IMG/VR virus record: IMGVR_UViG_2617271072_000007
Source of the DNA: a virus
Taxonomy: Duplodnaviria > Heunggongvirae > Uroviricota > Caudoviricetes
Length of the DNA stretch: 41,644 bases
Strand: one strand, 5' to 3'
Made by a program: the position numbers and the translations under genes. Numbering within the stretch: the first letter of the stretch is position 1; each line of letters begins with the position of its first letter. Shown in pieces: positions 17,928 to 37,020 of the stretch. Under the pieces are notes generated by a model. It was given only the letters and a program-made list of their open reading frames with translations. It had not been told where the DNA came from and made no database searches.

Positions 17928-18701
17928 TCAGGCGGGATAAGATTGGGAGGTGGGAAAAACGATTTCTTTATAACAGCGACAATTCGGGAGCTCGCCAGCA
18001 TGACCTGTCATGCCGTCAAGCGTTGGAGGTTTGCCCCATTCGACAAATTTACCTTCCATTTCCTGATGAGAATGCCTGACGTCACCATCTTCGGCTGTAC
18101 GCCAGATATAACCATTCGAACCAATTGACAGCGCACGCGCCTGATCCAGCGCGCCGGTTGCACGTCCAAGTTCAGTACGGGCAATCAGGTCAGCTCTGGA
18201 CTTTGCTATATCACCCGATGCGGCTATTTCTTTAGCAAAATGTTCCGCTCTCCCACCGGTAACAACAGCTTCTATCGCCCGATTCTGGATGTCGTACACC
18301 CTGTCAGCCGCCTCGAGGGGGAGCGATTTGATGTACTTAACCTGTTCAGCAACGATGGATTTCATCACCTGCCCTGGGGGGGCACTGTTTACCAGATTGC
18401 GTAGCTCACGGCTGATGGTTTTGCTGTGTTTACGCCACTGCTCATCATTCTTGCGCACAATGTCGGCGGTAAAGTTTTCCGCGACCTTTGTCGCCCAGGG
18501 GGTGATGATTTCACTGTAGCGTTCCAGCGCCTCAATAATTTCCGTGATACTGTCATTTGAACCATCGTAGCGACCATTTACGATGTCCCCGACCGCCCGC
18601 GCTATCCTGCGTAGACTGGTTCGATACCGGATTTCCGCCTGACGGTTCCTGCGGTTCGTCATCAGGTTCGCCGATGCCGGGCGGCGCTTCGTCTTCGGCA
18701 T
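17928..18701 (-). CDS. Mu F-like head morphogenesis protein
   Basis: 257 aa; likely true start MTNRRNRQ at about 18662. Confidence 0.8.
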
Positions 18702-20019
18702 TCTCTATGTCCTCGTCGGTAATGGATGCCCCGATGCCGGTTACGTCAGAATTTTCGCGCAAATCAGTCATAGCGGCTTTCAGTGTCATCAGACCATCAC
18801 CCAGCGCTGTACTGATTGCGTTGGTGGTATTTAACGCCACCGTTGAACGATCGACATCAGACATTTGCCAGAGCGGGTTAAACTCAAACGTGAAATCATC
18901 CGGGAGCGGCTTGCCAAGTTCCGAACGATGCATGATGTCCAGTATCCGCCGCACCGGAAGACGTAAACGCCTCTCCTGCAACGAGCTTACCCGGTCGTAA
19001 TAGTTGGCAAGGTCTGCATCGCCGGTAGAAAATCCCTTCGGGGACTGTCCGAACAACCGCACCAGTGGGATACCAACAGCGCCACTAATCTGTTCTGCAA
19101 ACTGTGAAAGGATGTCATCCAGACCACTGAAGCTGTACTGATGGGTTTCAAACTTATCCCGCGAGTCCATGAGAGTCATGCCTTCATTGCTCTGGAACTG
19201 TCGAATCAGGTCAATATTCTTCAGCAACGCTTCATACGCAGGACCACCAAGTGCGATAAGCTCGCGTAGCTTCTCCACGCTGTAGGTACGCAAATGCGCT
19301 TTGTAGACCAGCTGCGCCGCGCCGACAGTAGCGCTGTCGAACGCGGTAAGACGATCCCAGATACGCTCTACAACCGACATTCCCCATTCGTTCTCGGTCA
19401 TCTTCTGCTGAAATGGCAGCGTGACGCCATCAAAGCGAATCAGGCGACTGTGATGAATGCGCCAGGCAGGAATTCCCGTTGCTGTGGTCACCACATCGTA
19501 AAACTCAGGTTTACCCAGGTCCGGCCCCATATCTTTAATGCGGCGGGTCAGTACCGGGTCGATCATCCAGCGGTCGAGCGGGAGAATCCCCTTAAACTTG
19601 CCCTTACCGATGGTTTCGGGTCGCAGCGGGGTCATTGGTGCCTGCCCCTCAATCATGATGAAACCCACCGCGCCGCCGTAGAGGCGCGACCATTTCAGCA
19701 CGTCATTCAGCGCATCCCAGATTTGCAACTCATCCAGTTGTGATTCGAGAATGCCACGATCTTTTGCATCAATTTCCGAAGTGATGCGAATGCCTTTGCG
19801 GGTCATATCATCCGGGATAGCATCGACTGCTTCGCCGATGATCCAGGATGAACGATAGGACCATTCCACCAGCATGCGGTTACGACTGGTGAAATTAGCC
19901 CGGTAGGTGGATGCTGAGTGCTGGTTAGGTGTCTGCATCCCTACGCGGGCAATAAAATTCTCATAACCATCAGCTGTGGCCTGCGCAGTTCGCCGCAGGG
20001 CTTGTTTGTTTCGTGCCAT
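18553..20019 (-). CDS. portal protein (DUF935 / Mu gp29-like)
   Basis: 488 aa, acidic C-terminus, directly downstream of terminase. Confidence 0.85.
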   Translation of the reverse strand: MARNKQALRRTAQATADGYENFIARVGMQTPNQHSASTYRANFTSRNRMLVEWSYRSSWIIGEAVDAIPDDMTRKGIRITSEIDAKDRGILESQLDELQIWDALNDVLKWSRLYGGAVGFIMIEGQAPMTPLRPETIGKGKFKGILPLDRWMIDPVLTRRIKDMGPDLGKPEFYDVVTTATGIPAWRIHHSRLIRFDGVTLPFQQKMTENEWGMSVVERIWDRLTAFDSATVGAAQLVYKAHLRTYSVEKLRELIALGGPAYEALLKNIDLIRQFQSNEGMTLMDSRDKFETHQYSFSGLDDILSQFAEQISGAVGIPLVRLFGQSPKGFSTGDADLANYYDRVSSLQERRLRLPVRRILDIMHRSELGKPLPDDFTFEFNPLWQMSDVDRSTVALNTTNAISTALGDGLMTLKAAMTDLRENSDVTGIGASITDEDIENAEDEAPPGIGEPDDEPQEPSGGNPVSNQSTQDSAGGRGHRKWSLRWFK

Positions 20020-21645: not shown

Positions 21646-22218
21646 TTAGCCCATTATTTTTCTATACGCCTCTGCAGCCTGCTCCGGCGTTAAGTTGGTA
21701 ATTTCTGTTCTGACTGGTCCTCCATCAGCGCCAGTCACTTCATTTTTGACGTTGTCTTTAAACGCCTGAACAGAAACATGACGCCCAAGCAACTCAAGGT
21801 TTTTAACCTTATCAGGCCACTTAATCTTTTTAAGGATCCCGACCATTTCTCTGTCATCTCCTCGCCCCTCAAACATTTCAGCGAGGTTAAATCCACTCAG
21901 GTACCGACGCCACGATTCCGGCCACGCAGACAGAGGCTTAATACTTAAATCGTCCTCCAGGATGTCAGCCACATCGAGCCTGTCGATCTCAACCAGTCGC
22001 ATCAGCACATAATTCGCATCAATGCCCAGTTGATCAATACGCTCCTGCTTTAGCTCGTTGATGCGGGCGCGTATCTCTGGTTTACCGTATAGTTCAGCCC
22101 CCGTAACATGTGCTCGCCTGGAGGCGTAGCCTGCGCGAATAGCTGCTTGTGTAGCATTAAGATCGACAAGAAACTCGCGACAAAACACCTCGTGTTTTGC
22201 TTTCAGCTTCTTAGTCAT
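21646..22218 (-). CDS. terminase small subunit
   Basis: 190 aa, N-terminus [27 protein letters not shown]. Confidence 0.8.
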
Positions 22219-27531: not shown

Positions 27532-27672
27532 ATTTAAGTCTCCACTTTCGTCTATAGCGCAAATTTATACGAAAACGGATTACTCAGCAATACAGCAATT
27601 CTATGTCATCCTAGATTAAAATATCCGATAACGCATAATCACCGTCCCTGTATACAACATGGATGAATCCAA
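27532..27672. promoter_or_regulatory. OR-type operator region with divergent pR/pRM promoters (not resolved)
   Basis: Intergenic between cro and cI; contains GATAACGCATAATCACCG and TATAGCGCAAATTTATACG, related to motifs at the pL promoter. Confidence 0.5.
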
Positions 27673-28348
27673 ATGATTGATACTACCGATATCCTTTCTC
27701 AAAACATCAAGTACCTGATGGACAAAGCCAAGATAAGCTCGATAACTGAGCTGGCACGTCGGTTACAGCTGAACCAACCAACGCTACACAGGCTGGTATC
27801 AGGAGAGGTGAAAGATCCGAAATACGCAACGTTAAAGCAGATCGCCAACTACTTCCACGTGTCACCAATAGACTTGGCAGAAAGGAGCCTTCAAGAAATG
27901 GAGAAAGAGGACGCGACAGGTATAAAAAACGTATATTTCTCTTAGGTTTAATAAAGTACCTGTTTTGGGAAACACTCAGCTAGGCGTTGGAGGACTTTGG
28001 AGCGACACCCAATATTCAGTAGGTAGCAGTGATGGTTTCATATACTGGCCGACAAAGGATGAAGATGCATACGCCCTGAAATGTGTTGGTGATTCAATGA
28101 TGCCTAGAATCAAAGAGGGGGAGTTCGTAATCGTCGAACCCAACCACGACTACACTCCTGGTGATGAAGTACTTGTGGTTACCCGGGACGGTGAGGTCAT
28201 GGTGAAAACCTTCTTGTTCGAACGCGATGGCCTGTTCCATCTAATGTCTGTAAATGAAGATCATCCACCAGTCAGAGTACCACGCGAAAACATTGAAAAA
28301 ATCCATTACGTGGCGGGGATCGCCAAATCCGCGCTACGTATGTACTAA
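27673..28348 (+). CDS. cI: CI-type repressor (HTH plus S24 LexA-like peptidase); frame broken by a 1-nt indel
   Basis: HTH in 27673..27945, GDSMMP peptidase motif in 27965..28348; frames join at the A6 run about 27924-27929. Confidence 0.85.
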
Positions 28349-28378: not shown

Positions 28379-28408
28379 AAACCGCTCTCCACAAGGGCGG
28401 TTTTCTTA
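28379..28408 (+). terminator. rho-independent terminator after cI
   Basis: Stem AACCGC(TCT) / (GGG)GCGGTT of about 9 bp followed by TTTTCTTATTT. Confidence 0.7.
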
Positions 28409-28432: not shown

Positions 28433-28483
28433 TTGACACAAAATCCCATAACGCATATAAATACGATATCGCATAATTAATGC
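28433..28483 (+). promoter_or_regulatory. pL-like early-left promoter with overlapping OL-type operators
   Basis: TTGACA (28433-28438), 16-17 nt spacer, TATAAAT; operator-like AACGCATATAAATACG and palindrome CGCATAATTAATGCG overlap it. Confidence 0.65.
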
Positions 28484-28497
28484 GTTTTTTTAATACT

Positions 28498-28509
28498 GGC
28501 TCTTTAACA
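28498..28509 (+). promoter_or_regulatory. boxA-like element (nut-type antitermination signal)
   Basis: GCTCTTTAACAA about 30 nt downstream of the predicted pL start; matches the rrn / lambdoid boxA core; no boxB hairpin identified. Confidence 0.45.
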
Positions 28510-28659
28510 AACTGAACCGCGTGACAGGTAAGCCGCAGTACTCCTGGCAAAACGAAATAGCACCCGATGGGATCGAGGTAAGCGCCGAGTCCGTATGCGT
28601 ACGGTAAGCGTAGAGGACAACACCGCGACAAACTGATAAGTCACGCAAGTTGAAACGCC

Positions 28660-28683
28660 CCGACGATGGGGCGCTTAGTTCCT
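28660..28683 (-). terminator. putative terminator of the 174-aa minus-strand gene
   Basis: Hairpin CGCCCC-GACGAT-GGGGCG; on the minus strand followed by UUUC. Confidence 0.45.
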
Positions 28684-28767
28684 TTTGGGGTGGGGTGAAG
28701 ATCAGTCCATTGAGTCAATCCGAAGTTCAGCATCTACCACTACACCACCACCAAAGAGAACTGCTAA

Positions 28768-29292
28768 TCATCTGGCAGGTTGTAACGGTGCAGGAATTTT
28801 GCCACTGACTTCTATATTTCGGGGAAATTTATATTCAGCGGAGCATTTATGACACTTGAGAATTTTATAAGCGGCATTAGAAGTATGGTATTGAAGTATA
28901 GACTTCATACCCGACTCATAGCATGTAGTACAAAGATAATGAGGCTTGAACTCAGGATCGTCAGTAGGCTTCAGTACATAGACCACCGTATTGGTAATCG
29001 GGTGGTACATTTCATAGTTCATTTTCTCACTATCCCAATCCTGTTTCTTTTCAAGAAGGGATTCGAGTTCAACAATGCGCTGTTTAGCTTCGTTCAAAAG
29101 CTCCGTTAGTGCGAATTGTCCAGTACGCGCATCAATTAGTTTATCAAGTAGATCGATAGTTTTACTTTTAACATTGTAATCCACCTGCAACGCATTAACT
29201 TCTTTTGCTAAATCAACAGCACCTTTCAAAGCACCACCAGCACTAGTGGCCGCCTCAGTTATACGCCGTACAAGTCCTTTTTCTTCAGACAT
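28768..29292 (-). CDS. coiled-coil protein with C-terminal C4 zinc ribbon; immunity-region cargo
   Basis: 174 aa; CTTC-x22-CHKC; transcribed towards the pL promoter, antisense to the early-left operon. Confidence 0.55.
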   Translation of the reverse strand: MSEEKGLVRRITEAATSAGGALKGAVDLAKEVNALQVDYNVKSKTIDLLDKLIDARTGQFALTELLNEAKQRIVELESLLEKKQDWDSEKMNYEMYHPITNTVVYVLKPTDDPEFKPHYLCTTCYESGMKSILQYHTSNAAYKILKCHKCSAEYKFPRNIEVSGKIPAPLQPAR

Positions 29293-29420
29293 CTTAATTC
29301 TCTCTAAAACTATAGGGGTAAAGAGATATTAGCCGAATTCTCGCTGTAGGGGTACAGAGAGAGCCATCTCGTCTGACGTGGTTAAAACTGACATCCATGT
29401 AATTGCTGTGTGTAGCCTTT

Positions 29421-29446
29421 GCCCGCCTCAAGTGACGGGCTTTTTT
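29421..29446 (+). terminator. putative plus-strand terminator (tL-like) before the early-left genes
   Basis: Stem GCCCG / CGGGC with 10-nt loop followed by T6. Confidence 0.4.
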
Positions 29447-29505
29447 ATGTCTGAAAGCGCACTCGCAACAGCGCGCTCCCCGATATGAAAAAAGGAATAC
29501 AACCG

Positions 29506-32422: not shown

Positions 32423-32474
32423 AAAATATTCATCCCCCAGCTACGTGCTGGGGTATCTCATGAGGGAAAGTATA

Positions 32475-33116
32475 ATGTCACAGCCCGTATTAACTAATCA
32501 CCTTAAAACTCAAATCATCAATAACGCACTTGAGAAAGCGGGTATTCCCAAACGTAAATCAGCACTACGAGCTACTCGTGTTGAATGGGCCGAACGTGTT
32601 CGGCTTGCAGCTATCGGGGGCGTAGAGAAAGAAGCTGAAATATTAAAAAATATAAAAAGATTGAATCCATGGTCACAAAAATCCTCTGATTCATTAAAAA
32701 CCAATAGTTCTTTAATTCGAAAAGATTGCTGCATATATCTCAATCTGGCTGGAGCCAGAGCAAACATTTATTTCAATGGCAACTACAGAGGTTATGAATC
32801 AGGAGCCCCCGAGCATATTAATAAAATAGCACCTGCAGAATTTACTCTACTTGGCGAAGATCCTCTGGTAACGGAGTTTTATAGCTTTGATGCTCTCTAC
32901 ACACAAATTAAAAGTGATGAAACCGAAATCATACAGAACGTCAGCGCGGCTCTAAATAAAGTTCGGACAGTAAAACGATTACTGGATGTATGGCCCGAAG
33001 CTAAAGAACTGCTTCCAACAGACGCACCGCCAGTCCCTTTAGCACCAGCAGTACATCGAGAGACATTAAATGAAATGATAGGCCTTCCTACCAATACAGT
33101 GTCTGATACTCAATAA
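32475..33116 (+). CDS. hypothetical protein, AT-rich
   Basis: 213 aa from MSQPVLT with RBS GAGGGA; track ORF 32445..33116 starts at an upstream GTG. Confidence 0.5.
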   Translation: MSQPVLTNHLKTQIINNALEKAGIPKRKSALRATRVEWAERVRLAAIGGVEKEAEILKNIKRLNPWSQKSSDSLKTNSSLIRKDCCIYLNLAGARANIYFNGNYRGYESGAPEHINKIAPAEFTLLGEDPLVTEFYSFDALYTQIKSDETEIIQNVSAALNKVRTVKRLLDVWPEAKELLPTDAPPVPLAPAVHRETLNEMIGLPTNTVSDTQ

Positions 33117-33799
33117 CAAGGGGGATGCTTATTATATGATTTTGAACGTTTTACAATCTCGTTAAGAGGCGTGAAATCAAAATCTCTGAATAACACATCA
33201 GGATACTTCGCTCTTGCTTTATCCAGCAGACCAGTTAAAGTATTTTTTGTGTTACCCAACATTGTATTAACCGCCACTACATGTCTAATTTCTGGAGGTT
33301 TATCTATACCACCAGAAATTGCTTCATTAAGAACCGACGCCAGTGGGGTTTGTCCCTTACTTGTTGAATCCCACAGCGTCATTAACAGACGAGCTGCGTC
33401 TATAAATAGCTTTTTGTCAGCATTTGGCTTGACAGTAATACCAGAACTACCTGAGCCAGAACCGGAACGTTCTATTGCTGCACTGGTATCCGATTTCATA
33501 GGATTAAATAACGGCAGCTCTGTACAACCGATACGCCGAATGAAATCCTTTGCAACATCTCTACCACAGAAAAAAGCCCCTGTACAATTTTCATCAGAGC
33601 GTTTTTTAAATGAAAAACAATAGTACTGATCGGTTAACGGATAACCGGAATAACTGGTTTTAGTTTGTCCAGTAATAAGTTTCAGGTGTGCAACAGGCTG
33701 AATAATAAAATCCCGAACTATCGCATCTTTTATGTCGTTACCACGGTGACAATAATATTCAGGTAATCCATTAGGCTGTCTCTTATTACCCACAGTCAT
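33110..33799 (-). CDS. hypothetical two-domain protein, AT-rich, antisense to the operon
   Basis: 229 aa; Cys/His-rich N-domain, SGSGSGSSG linker, C-domain; convergent 7-nt overlap with the preceding gene. Confidence 0.55.
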   Translation of the reverse strand: MTVGNKRQPNGLPEYYCHRGNDIKDAIVRDFIIQPVAHLKLITGQTKTSYSGYPLTDQYYCFSFKKRSDENCTGAFFCGRDVAKDFIRRIGCTELPLFNPMKSDTSAAIERSGSGSGSSGITVKPNADKKLFIDAARLLMTLWDSTSKGQTPLASVLNEAISGGIDKPPEIRHVVAVNTMLGNTKNTLTGLLDKARAKYPDVLFRDFDFTPLNEIVKRSKSYNKHPPCY

Positions 33800-33860
33800 T
33801 AGTTGTCTCCTTTAATTCATGATATCTAGCATTTAACCATATACCATATGAGGATATTTT

Positions 33861-35924
33861 ATGTCCAATATACTATGGGGCGACCTGGAAACCTATTGTG
33901 ACATTCCGATCAACAACGGTACCCATGCGTATGCCGAAGGCGTTGAAGTGATGCTTTTCGCATGGGCTATCAACGACGGGCCAGTAAACGTGTGGGATAT
34001 CACTGCCGGTGGTGGTATTCCACACGGCTTATACGAAGCAATCGCAGACCCTGAAACCCTGCTTTATTTCCATAACTCTCACTTCGACCGCACCGTTCTG
34101 CGTTATGCAATGCCGCGACTGGCACCGCCAGTCGAACGTTGGCGCGACACGATGGTGCAGGCGCTGGCGCACGGTCTCCCGGGGTCTCTGGGGGAACTCT
34201 GCGAAGTACTAGGCGTCCCGCAAGACAAAGCGAAGGACAAAGAAGGTAAAGCGCTGATCCAGCTGTTCTGTAAGCCACGCCCGAAAAACAGCAAACTGCG
34301 TCGGGCCACCAGTAAAACCCACCCGGAAGAATGGCGGCGCTTTGTTGCTTACGCCGGACTGGATATCGAGGCAATGCGCGAAGTCTATAAACGTCTGCCG
34401 AAGTGGAATTATCAGGGGACAGAACTGGCGCTCTGGCATCGTGATCAGCAGATCAATGACCGGGGCGTCTGCATGGACATGCAACTCGCACGCGCTGCGA
34501 TCGAAGCGGTAGACCAGGAACAAAAGCGCCTGGCAAAGCGTACACAGGAAATGACTGATGGCGAAGTGCAGGCAGCCACACAACGAGACACGTTGATTAA
34601 GCACATTGTTGAATCCTACGGTGTGGAGCTACCAGACATGCAACGCAGTACTCTGGAACGTCGTATTGCCGACCCCGATTTACCATCTGCCGTGAAAGAA
34701 CTGCTGGCTATCCGACTGCAGGCCAGTACTACCAGCACCAGTAAATACAAGGCACTGATGAAAGGCGTAAGCCACGACGGGCGCTTACGCGGTACGCTAC
34801 AGTTCTGCGGGGCGTCACGTACCGGTCGTTGGGCCGGACGGCTATTCCAGCCCCAGAATCTTCCCCGCCCTTCACTAAAACAGGAACAAATAGACGAAGG
34901 CATCGAAGCACTGAAAGCCGGATGTGCAGACCTGCTGTTTGACAATATCATGGAACTAACCAGTTCAGCGTTACGTGGCTGCATTATCGCGCCAACAGGC
35001 AAAAAACTGGTGGTAAGTGACTTGTCGAACATTGAAGGCCGTATGCTGGCATGGCTGGCAGGAGAAGAATGGAAACTGAATGCATTCAGAGAGTACGACG
35101 CCGGAACGGGTTCGGACTTATATAAACTGGCGTATGCAAAAGCTTTCGATATTGCACCAGATGATGTTGATAAACACATGCGTCAGATCGGTAAAGTCAT
35201 GGAGCTCGGTCTGGGTTATGGTGGTGGTGTATCGGCTTTCATCACTTTTGCGCTGGTTTACGGTCTCGATCTCGACGAGCTGGCGAACGCCGCACTGCCA
35301 AACATTCCCCGCGATGTTATCCGCGAGGCGAAAAGCTGGTACGACGAATCGGTTAAACGCAAGTCAACCTACGGGCTTTCTGAACGGGTATTTATCGCCT
35401 GCGACTCACTTAAACGTCTCTGGCGCAGGGCGCACCCGGCGACCTGCGATTTCTGGTACGAACTGGAGCGCACCGTCCGCACAGCAATCGCCACACCGCA
35501 AAAAACATTGTATTGCGGCTATCTTAAAATCCGACGTGATGGCGCGTGGCTGCGCATACAGCTACCATCCGGACGCGCTGTATGCTACCCGTCTCCGGTT
35601 ATCGAAAAAGGGAATATCACCTACATGGGTGTTAACTCTTATTCGCGTAAATGGCAACGACTCAAAACCTACGGCGGAAAGCTGGTGGAGAACGTCACCC
35701 AGGCAGCCGCCCGCGACGTTCTGGCCGGAAACATGCCGCTTATCGAAGATGCCGGTTACAGCATTGTGTTGACGGTACACGACGAGGTGATCACCGAAGC
35801 ACCTGACACAGAAGATTTCAACGATAAAGCGCTTTCCGCGCTTCTCTCCACTAACCCCGAATGGGCACCCGATATTCCGCTGAATGCTGGCGGCTTTGAG
35901 GCGTACCACTACCGTAAGGAGTAA
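33861..35924 (+). CDS. family-A DNA polymerase with 3'-5' exonuclease domain
   Basis: 687 aa; DLETY exonuclease motif, [11 protein letters not shown] (motif A), [12 protein letters not shown] (motif B), VHDEV (motif C). Confidence 0.9.
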
Positions 35925-35931
35925 TACAAAG

Positions 35932-36960
35932 TCACTTAAAATCCCTAGATAACATCTGCGAAGCAGCTGATGCTGTATAAACTCCAGTATGTTTTATTTC
36001 TGCAGCTATTTTGTAGCCATCCTCCTTAAACTGCGTAAGCATTGAGCTTAAGGAACCAAGTTTTTTAGTATTCAACACCATTCTAACGACAGTTCCTTCA
36101 TGATAATGACCTAACTCTATATGCTTCTTTCCGTGTTCATCTAGATATATTGCATGGTCACCGCTACAAATAAGAAAACTACCGCCAAGTTTACATATAC
36201 GGCTGATCATATAAAGGCCAAATCCCGAATTATGCCAAGGATTTCTTGTATTGATTCTCGCCCCCTTAAAATTTTTACTAGAAATAGATGGCATTAACGC
36301 TAACTGAATGGCTTCAGAATCATTATCAGCTTCTATATAAGGGTTCTTCGATAGAGATTTTTTCATTCCTATACCATTATCAGAAATTGTTATTTCAACA
36401 CGGTCATAAGAAGGCCAATACTGTGCACAATATTCAATCACCTTTGAATCACTATGTTCCACAACATTACGCATAATTTCCCTAATAGAAAATGTCAAAG
36501 CATCAATGAGGTCGCCTTCTTCTTGGCGAGCAAGAATCTTTGCTAATTTACCAGATCGTTCCTCAACTATCTCTTGCACCTCAGTATATTTATCGTTAGC
36601 TTCATCTATAACTGTTTGAACACGAAGAATTGTAAATGGAACAAAATTATTATTTCCATCTGTACATCCCGGTTCACGGCCATGCTTTAACCCGAAGGCT
36701 CGAAAGAATGCCATATTTGCGGCATAATCCTTATTCTCATGCCCGCTACAAAAAAGTTTAAAACCATCAATGTTCTTTTTCTGTTTTCGATGGAAGTCTC
36801 GAATATGCTTAGCAACATAAACCATTGTAAATGGTTCAATCCTTCCCATATGCGAAAAATCGATTGTTATTTGCTGTTGACCTGAATGTTTTTCAATTTC
36901 ATTGCAAAAATTAAATATCTTTTCAGGATTACATGAAGAGGGAAATAAGATTCGTGACAT
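35932..36960 (-). CDS. GHKL-type (histidine-kinase-like) ATPase with unknown N-terminal domain; cargo gene
   Basis: 342 aa; N-box NVVEHSDS, G1 DNGIGM, G2 GFGLYM; AT-rich; opposite strand to the operon. Confidence 0.65.
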   Translation of the reverse strand: MSRILFPSSCNPEKIFNFCNEIEKHSGQQQITIDFSHMGRIEPFTMVYVAKHIRDFHRKQKKNIDGFKLFCSGHENKDYAANMAFFRAFGLKHGREPGCTDGNNNFVPFTILRVQTVIDEANDKYTEVQEIVEERSGKLAKILARQEEGDLIDALTFSIREIMRNVVEHSDSKVIEYCAQYWPSYDRVEITISDNGIGMKKSLSKNPYIEADNDSEAIQLALMPSISSKNFKGARINTRNPWHNSGFGLYMISRICKLGGSFLICSGDHAIYLDEHGKKHIELGHYHEGTVVRMVLNTKKLGSLSSMLTQFKEDGYKIAAEIKHTGVYTASAASQMLSRDFK

Positions 36961-37020
36961 ATTAATTCCTTATACTTGTTTTATTTGATACTACCCAATA
37001 AGTGTTAACAAGGCAAATTT

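Follow-up and report, generated by a model that had tools for sequence, protein, structure and literature searches.

Organisation of the locus

The stretch of DNA analysed here in its whole length of 41,644 nucleotides (hereafter the window) is a prophage carrying baseplate genes, a DNA polymerase, a primase, a Q antiterminator and a cI/Cro switch. Related phage records are named vB_EcoM, and in E. coli IAI1 the prophage is integrated next to yfhL. The following features were located around the gene under study, which we call rip1 after the family to which its product is assigned below.

27673-28348, plus strand: cI-like repressor gene (HTH and S24 peptidase), read as two ORFs owing to an additional A at 27929
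28379-28403: terminator after cI, between cI and pL
28433-28461, plus strand: putative pL (TTGACA-17-TATAAA), overlapping the operator-like sequence ATAWCGCATAW at 28448 and 28466
28499-28510, plus strand: boxA-like element of the pL leader, GCTCTTTAACAA, matched exactly nowhere else in the window
28656-28673, both strands: GC-rich hairpin CGCCCC-GACGAT-GGGGCG, read from the sequence where transcription of rip1 and of the pL leader would meet
28768-29292, minus strand: rip1 coding sequence; the product has amphipathic helices at the N-terminus, then a long helix, and a beta domain with four cysteines in its C-terminal half
29310-29353, minus strand: two direct repeats ACCCCTAYAG (29353-29344 and 29319-29310), 34 nt apart start to start, hallmark of the sieB/rip1 cassette
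29326-29356, minus strand: predicted rip1 promoter, with a -10-like TAATAT at 29331-29326 and TGTACC at 29356-29351, homologous to the annotated P22 sieB promoter
29357-29392, minus strand: distal part of the cassette, TTTTAACCAC-N10-GTGGYT and flanks, conserved between rip1 and sieB upstream regions
29401-29446, plus strand: backbone element akin to the 3'-terminal part of the sRNA RprA of the host, with an intrinsic terminator (stem 29421-29440, T-run (T6) 29441-29446)

The initial annotation had described a 174-aa gene converging on pL, and the ORF, cI, the putative pL and the terminator are all present as claimed. The ORF listing gives rip1 as a minus-strand ORF of 174 aa with the N-terminus MSEEKG. 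A profile search over 1.84 billion cluster representatives returned 2708 proteins with E-values up to 1e-3, of which 1097 reach 1e-10 or below, the protein is matched by phrog_1244 with an E-value of 2e-43, and identical or near-identical copies of the gene occur in 26 of 5426 complete E. coli genomes. Given these thousands of profile matches, the phrog_1244 match and the genomic copies, we consider 28768-29292 to be a real gene and more than a chance ORF. Over the 1151-nt rip1 query region the 26 genomes are 98.6-99.9% identical to the window, and the ORF is intact. The GC content of rip1 (0.39-0.42) is below that of the surrounding early genes (0.47-0.55).

The proposed CxxC-x22-CxxC motif was confirmed, being formed by C121, C124, C147 and C150. 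In an alignment of 25 diverse Rip1 homologs, including those of HK446, HK620 and JBD30, these four cysteines and Y93 are the only invariant columns. An AF2 model built with 13 homologs (mean pLDDT 77.5) comprises helices at residues 3-16 and 21-34, a long helix at 39-92 and a small C-terminal beta domain bearing the cysteines. The N-terminal half is thus helical in the model, and the Pfam coiled-coil match to the protein is weak (E 0.004). The top helical hydrophobic moment, calculated on 18-residue segments as a weak test using the sequence only, was found at residues 5-24 (0.49), compared with residues 7-24 (0.42) in HK446 Rip1. When identity was split by domain, no clear excess divergence appeared in the C-terminal domain. 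An internal start codon of the Esc type was also considered for rip1 and was rejected, the internal methionines not being conserved across the family.

Identification of the gene product as Rip1

Searching the PDB with phmmer, we detected chain L of entry 9oox, the ring interacting pore 1 protein (Rip1), with an E-value of 8.4e-45 over residues 3-159 of 174; the corresponding profile E-value was 1.8e-66. The entry contains the Rip1 of phage HK446 bound to the T6 small terminase, and the sequence of its chain L is identical to HK446 gp37. A tblastn comparison gave 47.5% identity between the window protein and HK446 Rip1. The AF2 model was compared with the PDB by Foldseek, which recovered chains M and L of 9oox (E 2.7e-11, probability 1.00) with a TM-score of 0.60 normalised to the target over 123 aligned columns, and nothing else significant in that database.

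Scans of the protein with Pfam, NCBIfam and PADLOC (2023) returned sub-threshold noise; since none of the three has a model for this family, there is no independent curated threshold for it. PF14163, the Pfam family of SieB, did not match the protein even at E<=10. The features expected of a Rip1 were found, namely homology over the full length, the fold, the four cysteines, an N-terminal amphipathic helix (by the weak test above) and a prophage-encoded single gene. From these comparisons and from the model we estimate at about 85% the probability that the gene belongs to the Rip1 family of single-protein, prophage-encoded abortive-infection defences. A defence role for the gene at 28768-29292 is probable. 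The gene is a new copy within an already published family, and the published understanding of that family is unchanged by it.

The four-cysteine motif and the position next to the immunity region could suggest a transcription regulator with a zinc ribbon, like DksA/TraR or Ogr/Delta, that acts in induction or late expression, a likeness that had been put forward for checking. No DksA/TraR or Ogr/Delta match was obtained with Pfam at E<=10, where the seven families listed were weak coiled-coil and miscellaneous matches, and NCBIfam gave only noise. The sole significant matches, in sequence as in structure, are to Rip1, and the cysteines sit within a larger beta domain that is conserved with Rip1. 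A regulator of this type is hardly credible. On the Rip1 assignment, homology instead places the putative zinc ribbon in the domain by which a ring of phage protein is gripped.

Promoter region upstream of rip1

The approximately 100 nt upstream of rip1 (29293-29392) align column for column with the sequences preceding sieB in P22 and lambda and rip1 in HK446, HK620 and Pantoea. The P22 record annotates both the sieB promoter and the sieB RNA start within the aligned region, and transferring the latter by alignment predicts a rip1 mRNA start near A29319. The window and the 606R2, IAI1, HK446, HK620 and Pantoea loci all have exact ACCCCTAYAG pairs, equally far from the start codon. These 100 nt are far better conserved than the protein itself, the HK620 hkaP product being only 27% identical. 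Relatives with other slot contents place the boundary of the cassette at about 29386-29394. Among the compared loci, matching sieB/rip1 promoter regions were located at L136 2145-2258, L137 370-482, L002 3900-4000 and L003 2912-3012.

A scan of IMG/VR for the repeat pair yielded at least 120 loci, and 118 downstream ORFs of at least 40 aa were considered. Among the matches listed, the downstream gene was SieB-like in 88 of the 118 cases, matched the Rip1 profile in 27 and was of another kind in 3. The 27 Rip1-type ORFs, again among the matches listed, correspond to 11 distinct sequences that are 26-100% identical to the window protein. Three of the four SieB-like seeds tested match PF14163.

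A generic sigma-70 scan did not call the rip1 promoter. The proposal that rip1 is expressed in the lysogen finds its best support in the homology to the sieB promoter. We also considered that a hairpin hiding the ribosome-binding site might lie upstream of rip1. This candidate was dropped, as RNAalifold applied to five rip1 upstream regions gave one compensatory pair only and the conservation is better explained by homology to the mapped sieB promoter. The sieB/rip1 cassette offers a practical marker for further lysogen-expressed defence genes.

The repressor side, pL and its leader

Three copies of the operator-like sequence ATAWCGCATAW are present in the window, where chance predicts 0.1; two of them overlap the putative pL and the third lies at 27628 in the cro/cI intergenic region. 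The putative pL was missed by the promoter scanner because its -10 element ends in A. In a relative whose repressor differs, the equivalent site, about 50 nt ahead of boxA, is occupied by another promoter, with TTGACG; in prophages with a different immunity module, homology to the window starts exactly at boxA. This onset of homology and the different upstream promoter in relatives support the placing of pL at 28433-28461 and the view that the early-left operon begins with the boxA leader.

We take the boxA-like element to resemble the rrn-type boxA consensus. It is followed within 130 nt by three GGTAAGCG repeats, at about 28527, 28576 and 28603. The ORF listing contains no N-like ORF from pL to rip1; a possible role of the boxA leader (28499-28685) is N-independent antitermination. 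The leader segment 28470-28700 has a folding z-score of 0.75, no more stable than shuffled sequences, and no Rfam match.

The hairpin at 28656-28673 is still in conserved backbone, the allele breakpoint following shortly at 28685. As a candidate terminator for both directions, it would form the 3' end of rip1 on the minus strand and a first stop for pL transcripts on the plus strand. The scanner left it uncalled because the T-runs on either side are just under its threshold.

The terminator at 29421-29446

The hairpin and T6 at 29421-29446 were correctly noticed in the initial annotation, where they were tied to rip1 as the stop that pL transcription would meet after running antisense through the gene. 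The terminator element is kept in relatives without rip1, in which homology to the window resumes at 29386-29394, so that the hairpin belongs to the phage backbone and not to rip1. Early genes start at 29485, beyond the hairpin and T6. These genes begin 40 nt downstream with no obvious promoter between, so pL transcripts probably must pass the terminator. Likewise, the boxA after pL suggests that pL transcription is antiterminated and reads through 29421-29446 rather than stopping there.

At gathering thresholds, Rfam gave no match anywhere in the window. Below threshold, RF00034 (RprA) matched positions 29348-29450 with 46 bits for a gathering threshold of 70 (E 6e-5), and a similar sub-threshold RprA match of 50 bits was obtained in the related phage 606R2. 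Besides those in the window, the positions recorded for the element are L001 5049-5162. The real similarity to RprA is limited to the last 46 nt, which are 82.6% identical to the annotated rprA in 5421 E. coli genomes. Before the hairpin, the stretch AATTGCTGTGTGTAGYCTTTGCCC agrees with the rprA of K-12 in 23 or 24 of its 24 nt; in the stem, one pair has both partners changed. A literature search found no relevant paper on a prophage-borne RprA-like element.

Allelic variation of the slot and recurrent antisense placement

Three phages whose flanks are 97% identical to the window diverge from it over 28686-29254, where they carry a 189-aa Rip1 homolog that is 44% identical to the window protein. 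Among the 5426 complete E. coli genomes, the flanks were found in 148 and the rip1 allele of the window in 26, other genomes carrying the 189-aa allele. In still other E. coli genomes, the interval from 28673 to about 29390 is filled by 280-330 bp of unrelated sequence containing small plus-strand ORFs. Alleles with 44% identity amid flanks with 97% identity are the pattern that would be expected of a defence gene under diversifying exchange. The natural set of alleles on near-identical backbones (174-aa, 189-aa, empty slot) should be useful for finding the determinants of ring recognition by Rip1.

In related prophages lacking rip1, the small slot ORFs include L009 626-835 and L010 666-860, both on the plus strand. 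One of these slot ORFs, of 64 aa, has its own CxxC...CxxC.

In every context examined, rip1 is on the strand opposite to that of its neighbours. Its position in the window, antisense a little way into the early-left operon, is found again in HK446, in HK620 and in Pantoea and Edwardsiella prophages. In HK446 it is convergent with N and overlaps its 3' end. HK620 hkaP lies between N/hkaQ and cIII, with tL1 annotated inside hkaP, and the Pantoea homolog directly follows the N-peptide gene. The Edwardsiella homolog converges on cI at a distance of about 500 bp, and that of Pseudomonas phage JBD30 is antisense between a small-terminase-like gene and the large terminase gene. The positional logic of the initial annotation fits this real family pattern, given the opposite-strand placement in all contexts examined.

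The Rip1 homolog of Edwardsiella ictaluri (L011 2406-4525) is 76% identical to the window protein and has no promoter repeats of the sieB type. It directly follows, on the same strand, a 510-aa gene with a faint ORC/CDC6-like ATPase match, so that the two genes may be co-transcribed.

A Rip1 fold could also serve mainly the cycle of the resident phage, for example by sensing its own rings to time lysis or to control packaging. The family does react to rings of the packaging machine, the resident phage encodes a small terminase (21646-22218) and a portal (18553-20019), and the Pseudomonas homologs lie between terminase genes. Such a role is nevertheless improbable. The gene runs opposite to all lytic operons in every context examined, its predicted promoter is that of the lysogen-expressed sieB, and it is dispensable or replaceable, near-identical backbones having other alleles or none. 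Moreover, the phage has its own holin and endolysin.

State of the prophage and other accessory segments

Compared with the IAI1 prophage, the window has single-base insertions in homopolymer runs at 27929 and at about 20 other sites (for example 11121, 15203, 17342, 20283, 20982 and 25774). The cI-like gene is intact, with 224 aa, in both 606R2 and IAI1. We rejected the split cI as the sign of a dead prophage, the pattern of indels pointing to homopolymer sequencing errors, and the interruptions of cI, the primase, the large terminase and head genes probably reflect sequencing or assembly error and not decay.

This bears on whether rip1 might be an inert passenger, with no current function, in a decaying prophage. 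That the repressor, the primase, the large terminase and several head genes are all interrupted relative to the E. coli IAI1 prophage would agree with it. Nearly all these interruptions, however, are +1 homopolymer changes, the signature of sequencing error; the rip1 ORF is intact and recurs in 26 genomes at 98.6-99.9% identity, and its family is conserved with invariant cysteines. An inert passenger is therefore very improbable, and we retain rip1 as a functional defence gene of the Rip1 family as the favoured interpretation.

Two further segments, 32423-33860 and 35913-37020, differ from the IAI1 prophage and contain minus-strand genes inside plus-strand operons. The first contains, at 33110-33799, a gene for a 229-aa minus-strand protein with no family match. 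In the second, the 342-aa product of the minus-strand gene at 35932-36960 contains a histidine-kinase-like ATPase domain and is weakly matched by PADLOC as DrmA-like; the IAI1 prophage has a TIR-domain gene at the position of this segment. Both segments look like additional accessory or defence slots.

Proposed mode of action

A review (PMC13434031) summarising Patel et al. (Nature 2026) describes Rip1 as prophage-encoded and harmless by itself. Among mutants escaping it, those of Pseudomonas phages are altered in the portal and those of E. coli phages in the small terminase, and 12 Rip1 protomers encircle the 11-mer small terminase ring (PMC13434031). Its N-terminal part consists of amphipathic helices and its C-terminal half touches the ring; the assembly is a pore, as seen from liposome dye release and from holes in cells, and the infected cell dies ahead of phage maturation (PMC13434031). 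A 2026 Nature Communications article (PMC13601566) and a meeting report agree with this account. The mechanism of the family is late-acting abortive infection by pore formation, which is neither entry exclusion nor regulation.

Applied to the window, this suggests the following course. In the lysogen, rip1 would be transcribed leftward from its own sieB-type promoter (29356-29326), starting near 29319, as homology to the P22 sieB promoter indicates, and by what is known of the family Rip1 alone would be harmless there, for which the persistence of intact copies in 26 complete E. coli genomes is indirect evidence. On late expression of a superinfecting phage, its small terminase or portal ring would template a ring of Rip1 protomers, contact being made through the C-terminal four-cysteine domain (approximately residues 93-160), if the window protein behaves like the HK446 Rip1-T6 structure and the rest of the family. 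The N-terminal amphipathic helices (approximately 5-34) and the long helix (39-92) would then form a pore in the inner membrane, by analogy with the HK446 structure and the family, and the cell would be expected to die before progeny assemble, as published for the family. When the resident prophage is induced, derepressed and boxA-modified pL transcription would run antisense through rip1 and may lower its expression; silencing of rip1 by pL transcription is plausible.

The initial annotation had anticipated a lysogen-expressed exclusion or regulatory factor. The membership of a defence family, the sieB promoter cassette and the recurrent placement favour the defence part of that expectation, but exclusion at entry and a regulatory function do not agree with what the family does.

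More speculatively, Rip1 and SieB might be interchangeable cargoes of one mobile promoter cassette that inserts antisense in the early-left operon. With no N gene here, the cassette would lie between the boxA leader and a terminator that mimics RprA at its 3' end; on induction, antiterminated transcription from pL would switch Rip1 off and so spare the phage's own lytic cycle, and the transcript end could release an RprA-like, Hfq-binding RNA. Taken as a whole, we hold this scheme to be doubtful.

The assignment provides a likely function for a "hypothetical protein" of E. coli IAI1, ETEC H10407 and O103:H2 12009, the rip1 product being left unannotated by Pfam, NCBIfam, PADLOC 2023 and PHROGs v4.

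Comparison with known systems

HK446 Rip1 is the closest characterised relative. The two proteins share about 47% identity over nearly their full length and the architecture of helices followed by a four-cysteine beta domain, and the two genes share the promoter cassette with its ACCCCTAYAG pair and a convergent placement in the early-left region. They differ in context, since HK446 rip1 directly follows the N gene of a lambdoid siphovirus, whereas the window phage has no N between pL and rip1 and a different backbone, that of the vB_EcoM-named phages, with baseplate genes and its own DNA polymerase and primase. The window protein also has a 15-residue C-terminal tail that is absent from HK446 Rip1, and 47% identity is too low to carry the specificity of the HK446 trigger over to it.

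The homologs of Mu-like Pseudomonas phages (JBD30 gp30, DMS3, D3112 orf25) are about 30% identical to the window protein (E 1e-13), retain the conserved cysteines and are likewise encoded by a single opposite-strand gene. Unlike rip1 of the window, they lie between small-terminase-like and large terminase genes and not beside the immunity region. The sieB-type promoter repeats were not found in the JBD30 locus. HkaP of HK620, a distant member of the family annotated as a 'putative superinfection exclusion protein', has 27% identity (E 4e-4), the invariant cysteines, the promoter cassette and an antisense slot in the pL operon; it differs by a much more diverged protein and by the presence of tL1 inside the gene.

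The SieB proteins of P22 and lambda (PF14163) resemble Rip1 of the window in their antisense early-left position and in the shared promoter region. SieB is described in PMC10883804 as a lysogen-expressed function that aborts superinfecting phages. It is an unrelated membrane protein, so that the shared cassette concerns regulation and position and not membership of a protein family. In P22, sieB has an internal Esc product and a sas antisense RNA, a precedent for antisense control at such a locus; no equivalent of Esc or sas was found at rip1 of the window.

The comparison with lambda had initially been made with rexAB. RexAB is, like Rip1, a prophage-expressed abortive-infection system of the immunity region acting on the membrane. 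It is composed of two genes between cI and pL, on the cI strand and co-transcribed with cI, and has no sequence similarity to Rip1. As a positional analogue rexAB is off by one slot, and the lambda layout and promoter alignment fit sieB instead. In lambda, sieB is found past pL and N in antisense orientation and shares its promoter element with rip1 of the window; given this shared upstream promoter region and the antisense position beyond pL, the lambda counterpart of the locus is sieB and not rexAB.
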